Below the pieces are notes generated by a model that saw nothing but the letters and a program-made list of their open reading frames with translations, was not told the origin of the DNA and made no database searches. This document shows positions 1 through 5,410 of a stretch of 64,000 nucleotides of DNA, in pieces; the stretch's first letter is position 1; every line of letters starts with the position of its first letter. The DNA comes from an uncultured cyanobacterium (GTDB taxonomy: Bacteria > Cyanobacteriota > Cyanobacteriia > Pseudanabaenales > Pseudanabaenaceae): assembly GCA_963703315.1 (NCBI GenBank), contig OY969811.1, positions 972,728 to 1,036,727 on the forward strand, given 5' to 3'. Both the position numbers and the translations under genes were made by a program.

Positions 1-1355
1 CCATCAAAACCTTAGATCGAGCCTATGGTATTTACCCAGATCGTGTGGATTTATTGGAGCCATTACTAAAGTTACTCACATCCAAGAAAATGGAAGTAGA
101 AGCTTCGATCGCATCCCGTCAGTTTGCGCTTAACTATCCAGAACATCCCGATGCTGCTAAGTATAAGAAGTTGGCTGATGATTACATGAATCAGTTCATC
201 AATGATTTTAAGAATGATTCGCTAGTTACGTCAATTCTTTCTGGCGATCGCAAAGTCATTGAGCAAATTTTTAAAGGAGAATCTGGATTTGGTGAGGAGA
301 ATGCAGCAGATTTAAAGAAAGGTCTATCTTTAGTCGATGATCCTAAACTTACCGAATATATTAATAGAATTGGACAGAAGTTAGCCAAGCTCTCAGGTCG
401 AGATGATTTTAAGTATGAGTTCTATATCGTACAGGATAACTCTCTCAATGCCTTTGCCTTACCTGGAGGGAAGATCTTCATTAATACAGGCACGATCGCT
501 GATATGGAATCTGAAGCAGAGTTAGCAGGTATCCTCAGCCATGAAATTGCTCATACAGTCTTTTCCCATAGTTATCTAAAAGTTATTACCGACACGAAGG
601 CGAGACTTCTCAAAAAAGTGGGACTGATTAACACAGTTCTCGAATATCTCAAGCCAGAATTTGGATTTAGCCGATCGCTGGAACAACAAGCCGATTTTCT
701 AGGAACTCGCATTCTCGCATCGGCTGGCTATTCTGCCGATGGCTTGTATCGTGTATTTGAAAGATGGCGTGGTTATGAGAAAGATCGCAAGACAGGCTGG
801 CTAGATACGCATCCTGCATCTTCAGAGCGTGTACGATATTTGCAAGAAGCTGTCCAGAATCGCAACTACAACCGCTATTCCATAGAGAATATCGAAGCTC
901 TAATTGCGGCGCGTGGAGCATTTTGCAAGTCAGAAGTCAAAAAAGATCAACCCGTTCCTACTTCCGCGATCGCTACGCCAAATCCCAGTGATAAGAAGCC
1001 AGTTTTAGGTCAAGTATCTGTGGTAGCAGGGCAAACTAACGATAATGTGAGCATTAACATCAATGGAGGTAAGGTTGAGTCGAGCGGTCGTTACATCCTG
1101 AATGTGGAAATTATCAACAATAGTAAAGAACCCTTTGGATTTGTGCCTATATTTGTGGAAGTAACCAATGCAGAAGGAAAGAAAGTGTCGGCACAGTTCA
1201 TCAGTGCGTCTGGCAAAAACCTAGTGAATGCAGGAGAAACAGCCAAAGCAACCCTTTCAATTTTCCGCCAACCTTGGCGAGATGGTGATCAAGGTTTAGT
1301 CTGGAAAATCACTGAAAACACTGGTGGAGGTCGAGTATTTCGGATTCCGTTCTAA
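1..1355 (+). CDS. M48 family zinc metalloprotease with a C-terminal beta-rich extension; 5' end lies outside the window
   Basis: HEIAH (HExxH), NAFALPGG, EQQAD and THP motifs. The frame is open from position 3 (IKTLDRAYGIYPDRVDLLEP), so the listed start at 45 is not the true start. Confidence 0.85.
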   Translation, partial: IKTLDRAYGIYPDRVDLLEPLLKLLTSKKMEVEASIASRQFALNYPEHPDAAKYKKLADDYMNQFINDFKNDSLVTSILSGDRKVIEQIFKGESGFGEENAADLKKGLSLVDDPKLTEYINRIGQKLAKLSGRDDFKYEFYIVQDNSLNAFALPGGKIFINTGTIADMESEAELAGILSHEIAHTVFSHSYLKVITDTKARLLKKVGLINTVLEYLKPEFGFSRSLEQQADFLGTRILASAGYSADGLYRVFERWRGYEKDRKTGWLDTHPASSERVRYLQEAVQNRNYNRYSIENIEALIAARGAFCKSEVKKDQPVPTSAIATPNPSDKKPVLGQVSVVAGQTNDNVSININGGKVESSGRYILNVEIINNSKEPFGFVPIFVEVTNAEGKKVSAQFISASGKNLVNAGETAKATLSIFRQPWRDGDQGLVWKITENTGGGRVFRIPF

Positions 1356-1360
1356 TTTGC

Positions 1361-1395
1361 TTTAAAAAAGCCTTGCAAAGCAAGGCTTTTTTAAA
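1361..1395. terminator. Bidirectional terminator-like hairpin TTTAAAAAAGCCTTGC-AAA-GCAAGGCTTTTTTAAA
   Basis: Perfect 16-bp stem with A/T tracts, 5 nt after the M48 stop. Same core stem as 24161-24188. Confidence 0.75.
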
Positions 1396-1416: not shown

Positions 1417-1453
1417 TTGCGATCGGCTTGAGAAGATAGATTGTTAATGCGAT
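1417..1453 (+). repeat. 37-bp direct repeat, copy 1 (left of GmrSD)
   Basis: TTGCGATCGGCTTGAGAAGATAGATTGTTAATGCGAT is 36/37 identical to 3415-3451. Confidence 0.95.
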
Positions 1454-1603
1454 CAAGTTTGAATTAGAGTAAAATCTGCGGTAATTTGCCCTTAAATAAC
1501 GAAACTAAATCACAGTTGTGTTATAAATTTTATAATTGTGAAGCTTAAGAATGCGGTATCCAATTTTTCAAGCATCAATAAATTAAACTTTCAGGAATCT
1601 TAA

Positions 1604-3322
1604 ATGTCATTTCAAATCCCAATCACTATTTCTGCTGCAATTAAAAATATTGAAAATAACCAATATTTACTTCCTGCTATTCAACGTGAATTTGTGTGGA
1701 GCCACGAAAAAATAGAATGGTTGTTTGATTCAATAATGAGAAATTATCCCATAAGTTCATTTTTGTTTTGGCGGGTTGAAGGTGACACTAGGAGAGACTA
1801 TAAGTTTTATCAATTCCTTAAAAATTTTAAGCAACGGTACGCAACTCATAATAACGAGTTCTCAACCACTGGTCACAACGATTTTACAGCAGTGCTTGAC
1901 GGTCAGCAACGTTTGACATCTCTTTATATAGGACTTTGTGGAAGTTATGCATACCGAACACCAAGACTCCATGAAGAAAATAATGAGCGCGTCTATCCAA
2001 CTAGACACCTATATTTGAATATTGAGAATCCGTTAGAAAATGAGGAAGATGGAAGAGATTTTGAATTTAAGTTTTTGAAGAAAAAAGAATTTGAGTCAAA
2101 CAAAGCAAAGTGGTTTAAGGTTTCTGAAATTCTCGCTCTTGCGGATGATTTTGAGTTCAATAGATATCTTGATAATCACAGTCTAAAAACAAATGAATTT
2201 TCATATAGAACTCTGGCGACGTTAAAGAATGTAATTCACTCAAAGCCAACCATAAACTTCTTCCTCGAAACAGAGCAAAGTCTTGATAAAGCGCTGAACA
2301 TTTTCATAAGAATAAACAGTGGGGGTGAACCACTAAATTTTTCAGATTTGCTCATGTCCATTGCTGTGGCTAATTGGAAAAGCAAAGATGCACGAAAAGA
2401 AATTCATACACTGGTCGATAACGTCAGAGAAAAAGGATTTTCAATTTCAAAAGATTTCATCTTGAAGACTTTTTTGTATCTGTACAGCAAAGACATTAAA
2501 TTTAAGGTTACAAATTTCTCAAAAGAAAATGCCAAGGAGTTTGAAAACGAATGGGATAAAATTCGAGATGCAATCCTTTCGGTATTCGATCTTGTAAGAT
2601 CATTTGGATTTTCTGATTCGACATTAACATCAAAAAATGCGTTGATTCCAATAATTTACTACATTTACCATAAAAATATATACAAAGACTTTCACACCAA
2701 AATTGCATATGAAAGCGATAGAAATACCATTAAAAAATGGCTCCACGTGGCTTTGGTTAAGCGAATTTTTGGCGGGACATCGGATAGTGTTCTTAGTCAA
2801 ATTCGCAGGGCATTCACTAGCGATGTATCGATAGCAGCTATTGAATCCCATACTCTAGGATTTCCTGTAAGTAGCATCAATGAAAACACAAAAAAAGATA
2901 TGGGGATTACGGATGAATTCATCACAGACATCTTACTGACCCAAAAAGATGACATGTATGCCTTCTCTATATTGGCATTGTTATATCCGAATCTTGACTA
3001 TAAAAACAACGACTTCAATAAAGATCATATACATCCAGCGAATAAGTTCGGCGACCTTTCAGTTGCTGACAAAGAAAAATATGGATGGGCGACTTACAAC
3101 TCTATTTTGAATCTTCAAATGCTGGATGCTAATGAGAACAAGTCAAAACAGGATAAAGATCTGTTAACTTGGGTCAATTTACAATTAGAGAAACAAGATC
3201 GATTCATATTTCTGAACAGCCATTTGATTCCAGATGTTAGCTTTGAAATTAAGGATTTCGGATCATTTATTGAAGCTCGAAGATTCATCTTGATTGACAA
3301 GCTTAAACAGATTTTGAGTTAA
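1604..3322 (+). CDS. GmrSD-family (DUF262 + DUF1524/HNH-like) putative modification-dependent restriction protein
   Basis: LPAIQREFVW, DGQQRLTSL and FIRINSGG (DUF262 motifs); C-terminal DHIHP...LNLQMLDANENKSK (HNH-like). I found no GCGATCGC in the gene. Confidence 0.88.
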   Translation: MSFQIPITISAAIKNIENNQYLLPAIQREFVWSHEKIEWLFDSIMRNYPISSFLFWRVEGDTRRDYKFYQFLKNFKQRYATHNNEFSTTGHNDFTAVLDGQQRLTSLYIGLCGSYAYRTPRLHEENNERVYPTRHLYLNIENPLENEEDGRDFEFKFLKKKEFESNKAKWFKVSEILALADDFEFNRYLDNHSLKTNEFSYRTLATLKNVIHSKPTINFFLETEQSLDKALNIFIRINSGGEPLNFSDLLMSIAVANWKSKDARKEIHTLVDNVREKGFSISKDFILKTFLYLYSKDIKFKVTNFSKENAKEFENEWDKIRDAILSVFDLVRSFGFSDSTLTSKNALIPIIYYIYHKNIYKDFHTKIAYESDRNTIKKWLHVALVKRIFGGTSDSVLSQIRRAFTSDVSIAAIESHTLGFPVSSINENTKKDMGITDEFITDILLTQKDDMYAFSILALLYPNLDYKNNDFNKDHIHPANKFGDLSVADKEKYGWATYNSILNLQMLDANENKSKQDKDLLTWVNLQLEKQDRFIFLNSHLIPDVSFEIKDFGSFIEARRFILIDKLKQILS

Positions 3323-3445
3323 GCAGACATTCGCAATGCCCCTGTGATCACATTCTATACAAAACTTGGTGTGCGTGAAGATGAGCTTCATTTTGACATT
3401 GCTGTTGATAGTAATTGCGATCGCCTTGAGAAGATAGATTGTTAA
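3323..3445 (+). pseudogene. 3' remnant of an AAC(3)-I-like GNAT acetyltransferase
   Basis: In frame after the GmrSD TAA it reads ADIRNAPVITFYTKLGVREDELHFDIAVDSNCDRLEKIDC*. This resembles the AAC(3)-I C-terminus ([27 protein letters not shown]). No 5' part or start codon. Confidence 0.7.
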
Positions 3446-3451
3446 TGCGAT
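3415..3451 (+). repeat. 37-bp direct repeat, copy 2 (right of GmrSD), starting at a perfect HIP1
   Basis: TTGCGATCGCCTTGAGAAGATAGATTGTTAATGCGAT. Confidence 0.95.
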
Positions 3452-3640
3452 GACTTTTTGGCTGTTGAAATGGAGAATTAGGCGATTTTGTTTCGGGGAG
3501 ATCAGACAAGATAAACGGCTCAATGCTTTTAATGACAGGTGTTTCAGAGATCGAAGACCTCCGAGGCTAAAACTATTGCACATCAAGAATTTCAGCTATT
3601 TAAGCTAAAGCAACTTCCCGAAACACCTATTGAGCCAATA

Positions 3641-5410
3641 TTAAAATGGATTAGCCGATATAGAAAAATAAATCCCATTTTCTTGTAAAGTTTTTTTCTC
3701 CGCCGAAATACGACTCAGGGGAATCCCAAAATCGAGTCGGATAGTGAGGCGATCGCTTATCTGTAAGCGCAATCCTGTACCTAATGCGGTCAAAGTGCTT
3801 GGATCAGGGTTGGTATTAGCTTGATGATTCCATACTGTACCAAAATCAAAGAATGGTACAACCTGTAAAAGTCCGCTAATTTCAGGAATCCGCAATATAG
3901 GAATCCGCACCTCGGCAGATAAAAGCAATCCATTATCGCTCAGCAGAGCATCTTGTCGATATCCTCGCAGGTTGTCTTGACCACCAATACTAATTTGTTC
4001 CTGTGACAAAAGTGGGCGATCGCTCAGTTGCAGATCGGCACGCAAAAATAACAGAGTTTCGGGGGCCAGCAGACGCACATATTGAGTTTGCCCGCGCCAT
4101 GCCAAAAATTGACTATCGGGAGATACATTATTGATCGTCGCGCCGAGCGCATTAATCCCTAAACTTAGTTGCGATCGCATCGCCAATACTTCTTCAGCAC
4201 TGCGTTGCACATATTCTTGAAAAAAGCGCAGCGCTGTAACTTTGGTCTGACCATCAGCATCAGCACCAAGGGAAGGAAAAGCAATTGTGCCGCCTAGTAA
4301 TGAGGCTGTACTTTGACGATGGCTCAGGGTTAAGCCTAGTGCCACATCTTGAGCAATAGTTTGAAAAATGGGTTGGCGGATTGTCAGTTCGTAATTTCGA
4401 GAATTAGAGGCAATATCGAGAATATTAAAAGGAGTTTCAATCACATTACTAGCAGAAGTTCCAAAGTTAAAGCTGATAGTTCCATTATAAGGATTGAAGG
4501 GAATTGTATAACTCGCATCAAAAGCATTACTACCGTTAGTATTGCTATATGAGAGACTTAGGCGATCGCCTAATCCTGCTAGATTTGCCTCGACAAGTTG
4601 GATTTGGCGACGCTCAGAGCCGACACTGGGAGTCCGACTATTATCAAAAGTAATTGGTATGTTAAAGGTTGGAGCCTCAGTCACCTTGATTTCTAAGTTA
4701 TTTAATCCCGCTTGCAAACTGGGGGACAAATTTGCCGATATGCTCTCAATTAGGGGATTAATTTGTAATAGTTGTAATGCTTCGAGTAGACGAGTACGGT
4801 TTAGAGGTTTCCCAGTGGCGATCGCTATTCGTGATTGAATATAGCCTGAATTAAGCCTGTTCAATCCTGTGACCTTAATTTCATCCAATCCTCCCTCAAT
4901 AACCTGAATCTTGACTATTCCTGTTTGTAAGTCCTGTTCTGGCAAATACGCCCCAGAGGTAATATAACCTCGCTCTAAATAAAGCTCTGTAATTTTAGTT
5001 CTAACTTGAAATAGTTCAATAATAGAAATTGGTTTGTTGGTATAGGATTTAGTAATATTCTCTAGTTCCTGATTGCTAAAAACACTGCTACCAATCACTT
5101 CAAACTTTTTAACTACAATCAATTCAGAATTGCTGTTGCTCGGAATTTGTGGAGATTGGGAATTTTCTAGATTTGGAAGAGTAAATAGACTGTCAGGAGC
5201 AGGCAGTTTAGACGGTTCAGTTGGGGTTTTAGGCGTAACTTTGGGAGCGATATCATTAGGAATTACTAAATTGCGTGGGATCGAGTTAGTTTGAGCAGCG
5301 ATCGCTTGAGGATAAGCATTAAATGCGATCGCGCTCAGTAGCACAACAATAGTATTTTTTTTGTCTTTAAATGTACAGATATACGCATACCATACTTTCA
5401 CAATAACCAC
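3641..5410 (-). CDS. ShlB/FhaC/HecB-family (TpsB) outer-membrane secretion/activation protein
   Basis: Signal-like N-terminus, POTRA segment (FEVIGSSVFS...ITELYLERGYITSG), IGGQDNLRGY loop-6 motif, and terminal F of a beta-barrel (YFSISANPF). Confidence 0.9.
   Translation of the reverse strand: MVIVKVWYAYICTFKDKKNTIVVLLSAIAFNAYPQAIAAQTNSIPRNLVIPNDIAPKVTPKTPTEPSKLPAPDSLFTLPNLENSQSPQIPSNSNSELIVVKKFEVIGSSVFSNQELENITKSYTNKPISIIELFQVRTKITELYLERGYITSGAYLPEQDLQTGIVKIQVIEGGLDEIKVTGLNRLNSGYIQSRIAIATGKPLNRTRLLEALQLLQINPLIESISANLSPSLQAGLNNLEIKVTEAPTFNIPITFDNSRTPSVGSERRQIQLVEANLAGLGDRLSLSYSNTNGSNAFDASYTIPFNPYNGTISFNFGTSASNVIETPFNILDIASNSRNYELTIRQPIFQTIAQDVALGLTLSHRQSTASLLGGTIAFPSLGADADGQTKVTALRFFQEYVQRSAEEVLAMRSQLSLGINALGATINNVSPDSQFLAWRGQTQYVRLLAPETLLFLRADLQLSDRPLLSQEQISIGGQDNLRGYRQDALLSDNGLLLSAEVRIPILRIPEISGLLQVVPFFDFGTVWNHQANTNPDPSTLTALGTGLRLQISDRLTIRLDFGIPLSRISAEKKTLQENGIYFSISANPF

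Follow-up and report, generated by a model that had tools for sequence, protein, structure and literature searches.

How does a lone restriction gene come to lie between two near-identical repeats in a cyanobacterial chromosome, and what do the repeats do there? The question is raised by positions 1417–3451 of a 64,000-nucleotide stretch of DNA (the window; positions 972,728–1,036,727 of the forward strand of contig OY969811.1, assembly GCA_963703315.1) from an uncultured member of the cyanobacterial family Pseudanabaenaceae, in which a single gene related to the type IV restriction enzyme BrxU is flanked by 37-nt direct repeats. The original prediction held that recombination between these repeats could excise the cassette. 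They are neither private to it nor an ordinary duplication of an attachment (att) site: comparison across 71 genomes of the family indicates that they are copies of a genus-wide unit, capped by the octamer HIP1, that delimits arrays of cassettes; the unit family is present in 45 of the genomes, and relatives carry the left copy as a resident sequence. The novelty lies in the repeats and not in the gene: through them the locus is connected with a defence hotspot and with a cassette system that spans the genus and resembles integrons but has no integrase. Taken alone, the gene is one more cyanobacterial member of the well-studied BrxU/GmrSD family, and its context matters more. We think it fairly probable that a horizontally acquired BrxU-type gene occupies a cassette frame whose units serve as boundary joints, recombining homologously without an integrase.

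The repeats, at 1417–1453 and 3415–3451, are identical at 36/37 positions, start 1998 bp apart and enclose a HIP1-free gene, all as originally described. The left copy reads TTGCGATCGGCTTGAGAAGATAGATTGTTAATGCGAT and the right copy differs from it only in having a C at position 10. The window contains exactly two instances of their 27-nt core (0 expected from 100 shuffles), and weaker similarity between the two copies extends out to 50 nt (88%). Both copies end in GCGAT and begin in HIP1 or near-HIP1 sequence, as had been noted, but the octamer begins two bases into the repeat, at base 3 and not at base 1: the right copy has a true HIP1 (GCGATCGC) at 3417–3424 and the left copy a near-HIP1 (GCGATCGG) at 1419–1426.

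Genomes that carry the repeat, detected with a degenerate pattern allowing at most 3 mismatches in 34 nt, belong to 4 of the 12 genera of the family and have up to 38 copies each, whereas the reversed control pattern matched nothing in any of the 71 genomes. The source genome has eight copies, two in the window and six on one strand of a 16-kb stretch at 2.73 Mb (the main array); it has 28 unit matches in total, with none for reversed controls. Across the genus the repeat occurs hundreds of times. Three types of unit can be distinguished. Type B, the canonical 30-nt unit bounded by HIP1, reads GCGATCGCCTTTAGAAGATAGATTGTTGAT(GCGATCGC); type A, a 33-nt unit (GCGATCGCCTAGAAATCACGACTCACAGTAATA), alternates with type B in tandems of period 63; and type C, of 41–42 nt, has its 3′ half in common with type B. 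The spacings of successive CGATCG motifs in arrays show sharp peaks at 30 and 33. In full-text searches of the literature we found no account of these units, nor any of integrase-free arrays of cassettes in cyanobacteria. Another mini-cassette may lie outside the window, at G000:C1:1092060-1092379 (G000 is the source genome), where two A-type units on the minus strand are 319 bp from each other and next to a copy of a miniature inverted-repeat transposable element (MITE)-like sequence.

The cassette and its surroundings comprise the following features.

3–1355, plus strand: M48 family peptidase gene (Pfam Peptidase_M48, 5e-29), the conserved left anchor of the slot.
1361–1395, plus strand: intrinsic terminator hairpin of the M48 gene, a 16-bp stem followed by a T run.
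1417–1453, plus strand: left repeat, a B-type unit with a near-HIP1, the resident copy of the site.
1454–1540, plus strand: 'D' leader, with promoter-like TTGAAT (1459–1464), 17 nt and TAATTT (1482–1487).
1545–3322, plus strand: foreign core, the open reading frame (ORF) plus at most ~60 nt upstream, with homology to HIP1-free non-cyanobacterial contigs.
1604–3322, plus strand: BrxU-type ORF, identified through Pfam, PADLOC HEC-05 and PDB 7P9K.
3326–3424, plus strand: remnant of a GNAT acetyltransferase gene, its last 33 codons (DIRNAPVITFYTKLGVREDELHFDIAVDSNCDRL; 99 nt), running into the right repeat.
3415–3451, plus strand: right repeat, a B-type unit with a true HIP1.
3489–3645, no strand: MITE-like element of ~150 nt, with inverted ends GTTTCGGGGAG and CTTCCCGAAAC.
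3641–5410, minus strand: ShlB/FhaC-type outer-membrane transporter gene (Pfam ShlB, 7e-34; POTRA_2, 1.5e-23).

One intact ORF, encoding 572 amino acids, lies between the repeats, and the cassette that surrounds it is composite: only positions ~1545–3322 are foreign, and the leader at 1454–1540 and the GNAT tail are Pseudanabaena sequence. DNA homology to non-cyanobacterial contigs starts between 1545 and 1605 and ends at the stop codon, at or before 3326, and the imported piece is therefore the ORF plus the short upstream segment. The GNAT tail aligns with the 3′ end of an intact GNAT gene in the main array of the same genome (L008:15896-16378; Pfam Acetyltransf_1, 2e-18), the stop codon of which falls inside another repeat copy; the cassette of Pseudanabaena biceps, described below, has the same remnant. 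The array copy at C1:2738362 is preceded by the GNAT end and followed by the D leader, a circular permutation of the order repeat, D leader, gene, GNAT tail, repeat in the window. This permuted order would be expected if, at the repeat, a circle had integrated or a tandem had recombined internally. The G+C content inside the repeat-bounded interval is 0.34, compared with 0.42 for the window, and CGATCG is absent from it (5.7 expected). The HIP1-free gap around the cassette spans genome positions 973693 to 976144 (2451 bp). Because gaps of at least 1990 bp make up 18% of the host genome, however, the absence of HIP1 is weak evidence of foreignness and we downgraded it.

Homologues of the gene are present in only 4 of the 71 genomes: the source genome, P. 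biceps O153 (G058; 90% amino acid identity), Pseudanabaena frigida (G059; 72%) and G018 (71%). Homologues with 70–84% identity occur in Methylobacter, Thiorhodococcus, Marinobacter, Desulfobulbus, Sulfuricurvum and Pseudomonas and on HIP1-free metagenome contigs, and blastn identity of the foreign core is 77–83% to metagenome contigs and 75% to Methylobacter. In a maximum-likelihood tree, the window protein pairs with that of P. biceps (support 100/100), and these two, together with one cyanobacterium-like metagenome contig, nest in a group of proteobacterial and metagenome sequences; the copies of P. frigida and G018 have other positions in the tree. These data, with the low G+C content and the lack of CGATCG, show that the gene originated outside the cyanobacteria. 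The sparse distribution, the tree placement and the recurrence of the unit elsewhere in the P. biceps genome uphold the earlier view of an acquired cassette. Around the P. frigida and G018 copies we found no A, B or C units and no other flanking direct repeats, and so these copies were acquired differently from the window cassette. Elsewhere in the gene family, Marinobacter sp. SS8-8 (L057) and Desulfobulbus rhabdoformis DSM 8777 (L061), which belong to different phyla, encode BrxU-like proteins that are 100% identical, a match that indicates very recent transfer across phyla.

In P. biceps the same repeat-to-repeat unit, GNAT tail included, occupies a different locus, with Uma2-family genes as neighbours and hemA nearby. 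DNA homology between the two cassettes covers 1427–1573 and 1585–3440 at ~92% identity, with both ends inside the repeats, whereas core genes of the two species are just 80–85% identical; the cassette has therefore moved between lineages or loci after the species split. In this comparison the cassette interior is better conserved than the repeats, and the B copies on either side of the P. biceps cassette differ clearly from each other.

The site in the window has a history of its own. Orthologues of the M48 gene in G002, G009, G013 and G020 have ~80% DNA identity, and all four genomes keep its terminator, the last sequence common to all of the orthologous loci. Directly after the terminator, G013 has one repeat copy (TTGCGATCGCCTTGAGGAGATGGATGTTAAT), beyond which an IS630-type gene begins, and G020 has the first ~22 nt of the repeat, a truncated copy; G002 and G009 diverge earlier. 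The left repeat is ancestral to the M48 site, given its presence at the orthologous place in G013 and G020. The slot downstream holds BrxU in the source genome. In G002 it holds an IS110-type insertion, a Uma2 gene, a B-A-C-B cluster, a gene for an OLD-family ATPase-nuclease (562 amino acids; PADLOC Old, 6e-32) and an A-B-A-B-A-B-A cluster. In G020 it holds Lamassu LmuC, LmuB and LmuA (6e-67, 6e-134 and 4e-39), closed by degenerate A and B units, after which core genes resume. The right flanks are not syntenic across relatives. Judged by these gene contents, the slot downstream of the M48 gene is a defence hotspot that carries a different system in each species. Defence hotspots beside conserved core genes are known from Escherichia coli, Pseudomonas and Vibrio, and the M48 slot resembles them in lying next to a core gene and in hosting different systems (BrxU, OLD nuclease and Lamassu). 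It differs from them in that the M48 left flank alone is conserved, the right border being formed by repeat units and not by a second core gene, and in that there is no integrase or tRNA target.

Exchange at the units extends well beyond this slot. In a survey of 22 array segments from ten genomes, the units within an array share one orientation and have cassettes of 0.6–8 kb between them, the ORFs of which run in the same direction as the units in 162 cases and in the opposite direction in 72. These cassettes include toxin–antitoxin pairs, HNH and Uma2 nucleases, GNAT, DUF1993 and SDR proteins, HxlR, LysR and TetR regulators, and ATPase pairs. No recurrent recombinase is present in or beside the 22 arrays. 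Neighbouring cassettes differ between genomes, and where arrays share blocks of homology, 115 of the 329 block ends fall no more than 60 nt from a unit, about five times chance (23.6 expected from random placement, with a maximum of 39 in 1000 trials). For example, G005 has a cassette with a 177-amino-acid gene joined directly to a GNAT cassette at a single ...ATTGTTGGTGCGAT, and in G013 the corresponding two borders enclose an additional 3 kb, namely two more cassettes with a B copy on either side. This difference is a clean repeat-to-repeat insertion or deletion of the kind proposed for the window cassette.

Some array contents deserve mention in their own right. A two-gene cassette encoding a 411-amino-acid ATPase-like protein and a 196-amino-acid protein recurs in three genomes (L096:10013-11816, L099:9271-11050 and L102:11754-13515) and is possibly a defence pair of an ATPase with a small partner. 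A conserved multi-gene block, which includes a TetR-like gene, a 393-amino-acid HlyD-like gene, a 390-amino-acid permease-like gene and an ABC ATPase, lies within or beside arrays at six loci (L091, L097, L098, L099, L102 and L104); cassettes can therefore be whole efflux operons. An IS1-like ORF (L008:8425-9420, equivalent to G000:C1:2730424-2731419) was considered as an array recombinase and rejected. It encodes 331 amino acids that resemble an IS1-type transposase, with an N-terminal zinc-finger-like CPHC...CKEC and no Pfam match. Next to the first repeat of the main array, it splits the RelE/ParE-type toxin cassette with which the array starts, and the 3′ end of this cassette resumes on its far side.

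The D leader of the window cassette also belongs to a wider family. Leaders of the D type are found in no fewer than 12 genomes of the genus, where they come after B or C units and precede unrelated genes; they occur after 11 of 55 clusters that end in a B or C unit, none of 66 that end in an A unit and 23 of 6600 random positions (0.35%). The consensus, fused to the 3′ HIP1 of B or C units, consists of TTGACT (TTGACN), 17 nt, TAATTT and then ...TAAACCGCAATTGCG, and on this basis the leader looks like a portable promoter. Loci with a D leader include L064, L074, L077, L079, L083, L094, L096, L100, L107 and L108. In the window, a promoter scan found a second promoter-like site within the leader, at 1509–1536. 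An exact-match scan of metagenome contigs for the cassette leader found no match. We rejected the idea that the leader is a structured RNA, as RNAalifold predicts no pairs in it. A CTGCGGT/ACCGCAG inverted repeat around the −10 box is 79% paired, not above shuffles, and shows no compensatory changes; because covariation is absent, an operator is likelier than an RNA stem. On a cyanobacterium-like metagenome contig (Ga0105045_10100092; L120, 40-180), an 84%-identical BrxU gene is preceded by a HIP1-capped unit of a different kind and by a D-type leader, and it lacks the GNAT tail; the association of D leader and gene is therefore older than the cassette shared by the source genome and P. biceps.

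The gene itself proved to be of a familiar kind. Its product matches GmrSD_N/DUF262 (PF03235) in Pfam at 6.6e-33, and full-length alignments to PADLOC HEC-05 (E value 1.2e-210, 699 bits, residues 1–571 of 572) and to PDB 7P9K/7P9M (E value 3.3e-103, 349 bits, residues 4–569) confirm the GmrSD-type gene predicted from the letters alone. The C-terminal half of that prediction fared less well in the profile search, as GmrSD_C/DUF1524 (PF07510) reached 17.2 bits, under the 23-bit cut-off; the C-terminal His-Me/HNH region is nonetheless alignable with BrxU over its whole length, to residue 569. The protein contains IQREF (residues 26–30), WLFDS (39–43), DGQQR (99–103), FIRINSGG (234–241; FxxxN), DHIHP (474–478; DHIYP in BrxU) and NLQMLDANEN (503–512), with the downstream N...N conserved, and the QR, DGQQR and DHIHP motifs are all intact. 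HEC-05 is BrxU, a GmrSD-family type IV enzyme of Escherichia fergusonii (Payne and colleagues, bioRxiv 10.1101/2024.01.29.577857). The BrxU of plasmid pEFER (PDB 7P9K/7P9M) is likewise a single polypeptide of ~575 amino acids that aligns end to end with the window protein and has the same domain order: an N-terminal DUF262 domain (with an RLFDS-like WLFDS in the window protein), a helical linker and a C-terminal His-Me finger. We count the family assignment as established, and the alignments make the gene an ordinary new member of the known, characterised BrxU/GmrSD family; its specificity and activity in Pseudanabaena we infer from that kinship.

By homology, the N-terminal DUF262 NTPase would sense modified DNA and license the C-terminal His-Me (HNH) nuclease, which would degrade phage DNA bearing modified cytosines and would require no methyltransferase partner. 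There is none among the neighbouring genes, which are the M48 peptidase gene and the ShlB/FhaC-type gene, in agreement with the original prediction. That prediction had also called the target unknown, which is not entirely so: BrxU, the closest solved relative, cleaves DNA with 5-methylcytosine (5mC), 5-hydroxymethylcytosine (5hmC) or glucosyl-5hmC in an ATP-dependent manner and degrades fully 5mC-substituted DNA in vitro (PMC12409352). Unlike BrxU, the Pseudanabaena gene is encoded alone and not beside a BREX system, and it lies in a cyanobacterial cassette in a host whose own DNA is probably 5mC-methylated at HIP1, given that the genome encodes three intact C5 cytosine methyltransferases. 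The locus therefore poses the question of how a 5mC-active type IV enzyme coexists with host HIP1 methylation. E. coli with Dcm tolerates BrxU, and its methylated sites are roughly as widely spaced as HIP1 is in this host (one per 557 bp); for that reason tolerance of a BrxU-type enzyme despite HIP1 methylation seems plausible.

How, then, might the cassette have arrived? The foreign ORF with its short upstream segment became embedded in a frame of B-type repeat, promoter-bearing leader, gene, displaced GNAT tail and B-type repeat. If the units act as homologous joints, the cassette would have entered at a repeat that was already resident at the M48 site. More generally, homologous (RecA-type) recombination between HIP1-dense units would bring cassettes in, remove them and exchange them, with no dedicated integrase, and natural transformation would probably precede recombination at the units. 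Recombination between the two repeat copies would delete the cassette and leave one repeat, and excision of the window cassette by this route is plausible. The locus represents the gain of a cassette at a HIP1-capped repeat within a genus-wide system of such repeats, and it offers a clean, small and tractable case, with one gene, two near-identical repeats and a one-repeat orthologous site in relatives. HIP1-bounded deletions are known from the Synechococcus smt locus, where HIP1 lies at the deletion end points. The presence of HIP1 in homology arms, especially when methylated, increases integration by up to ~100-fold in Synechococcus PCC 7002 (bioRxiv 10.1101/2024.09.10.611283), and HIP1, which raises the efficiency of transformation and recombination, has been likened by the authors to Chi and to an uptake signal (bioRxiv 10.1101/2024.09.10.611283; PMC13756078). 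If the joints are indeed integrase-free, they would explain the turnover of defence genes in naturally competent, polyploid cyanobacteria, link the reported Chi-like and uptake-enhancing effects of HIP1 to a genomic function, and give engineers of Pseudanabaena and its relatives landing pads that are already in place.

The points at which species diverge within the repeat at the M48 site vary (after GAGATA, after GTTAAT or after GCGAT), which fits homologous recombination better than a fixed crossover. Several observations nevertheless weigh against homologous joints. Varying divergence points are also expected from imprecise events or later decay. Both window repeats have the resident-type 5′ end TTG...CTTGAG, whereas the P. 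biceps cassette copy and the array copy have TAG...CTTTAG; the shared 5′ ends are not what a simple reciprocal crossover with a donor like P. biceps would leave, and they need a donor of the same variant, later gene conversion or another mechanism. Exact copies of the resident-type variant exist in G008 and G062. A recombinase could act in trans, and, with about one-fifth of B and C units fused to a promoter-like leader, the units may be primarily for expression. On the side of the enzyme, the host has three C5 methyltransferases and BrxU cleaves fully 5mC-substituted DNA, so that the specificity or activity assigned to the enzyme in this host is putative.

The first of these alternatives holds that the A, B and C units are sites for a dedicated site-specific recombinase supplied in trans, as XerCD is for integrative mobile elements exploiting Xer (IMEX), which would make the system an unrecognized integron analogue. 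We regard this as rather unlikely. Such a recombinase would suit the strong conservation of the units over four genera (at the mismatch limit given above), their strict co-orientation within arrays and the sharp edges of exchange, with P. biceps homology running from right after GCGAT and the insertion–deletion junction falling in one B 3′ half. It is at odds with the lack of any recurrent recombinase in or beside the arrays, with units that have neither an internal dyad nor an attC-like fold, and with breakpoints at the M48 site that differ between species. The known enzymes of the genome are also distant: the three tyrosine recombinase (PF00589) matches lie at 1.754, 1.755 and 4.368 Mb and the single Y1 transposase (PF01797) match at 0.349 Mb, far from any unit cluster, whereas the arrays are at 0.974 and 2.73 Mb. 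It is unlikely, too, that the units are primarily expression elements, whether promoter-upstream, translation-stop or RNA-stabilizing, in the manner of repetitive extragenic palindromic (REP) sequences and bacterial interspersed mosaic elements (BIMEs), with recombination incidental. The direct fusion of promoter-like leaders to B and C units far above the random rate would be expected of such elements, as would the stop codons that the A and B consensus sequences together supply in all three frames and the 8-bp stems that HIP1 pairs can form; however, tandem A-B-A-B runs contain no promoter, 80% of terminal B or C units have no D leader, and neither the homology-block ends at units nor the repeat-to-repeat insertion–deletion would be explained. 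REPs and BIMEs of enterobacteria are short intergenic repeats, often in tandem clusters, that are substrates for rearrangement. The Pseudanabaena units are likewise short, intergenic and often clustered in tandem, but they are direct and, save for the HIP1 caps, non-palindromic, and they delimit mobile cassettes. We rejected a REP/REPIN system driven by a REP-associated tyrosine transposase (RAYT), as the units form no palindromic hairpins and no RAYT gene lies nearby.

The resemblance to integrons is closer, and sedentary chromosomal integrons and clusters of attC sites lacking integrase (CALINs), such as the Vibrio superintegron (Cury et al. 2016, PMC4889954), share with the Pseudanabaena arrays long, co-oriented series of small cassettes shuffled at a family repeat. 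That the repeats are attC sites of a canonical integron cassette or CALIN is nonetheless very improbable, even though co-oriented arrays of small accessory, toxin–antitoxin and defence cassettes separated by a repeat are what such a system would show. There is no IntI beside the arrays, all three tyrosine recombinase matches being far from them, and the units, which are 30–33 nt long, HIP1-capped and often in A-B tandems of period 63, lack the R''/L''/L'/R' imperfect hairpins and the GTTRRRY core of attC; their core reads GTTGATG or GTTAATG. Single-stranded folding of both strands gave just 8-bp HIP1–HIP1 stems, leading us to reject the attC reading, and an Rfam search of 8 kb of the main array at E values up to 1 found no match. 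Some Pseudanabaena cassettes also bring their own promoter. A canonical integron is excluded. We give almost no credence to the idea that the two repeats are the target-site duplication of a transposon or a chance repetition. The copies are 36/37 identical and both are of the resident type, as a duplication would produce, but 37 bp is far longer than known target-site duplications, the cassette contains no transposase or terminal inverted repeats, the P. biceps cassette lies between two clearly different B copies, and hundreds of copies occur across the genus, where chance predicts zero.

Beyond homologous joints as such, we tentatively raise a broader and more doubtful possibility, that the arrays constitute an integrase-free cassette platform in which HIP1-capped tandem units are joints that favour both DNA uptake and recombination, making it a second, mechanistically distinct kind of integron. 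Ordinary host recombination would then take up, reshuffle and drop defence, toxin–antitoxin and detoxification cassettes, some of them with a portable promoter, and part of the 30-year-old HIP1 puzzle would acquire a concrete function.

To the right of the cassette, the orthologues of the ShlB/FhaC-type gene in relatives lie elsewhere and are not syntenic with the M48 gene. We rejected the idea that the right repeat is native to this flank, because there are no units near the ShlB orthologues in five relatives. The MITE-like element is the right neighbour of the cassette and lies outside it. Three copies, 89% identical, are present in the source genome, the others being at G000:C1:888729-888884 and 1092424-1092565, and the element is frequent in other Pseudanabaena genomes, with at least 10 copies in G016.

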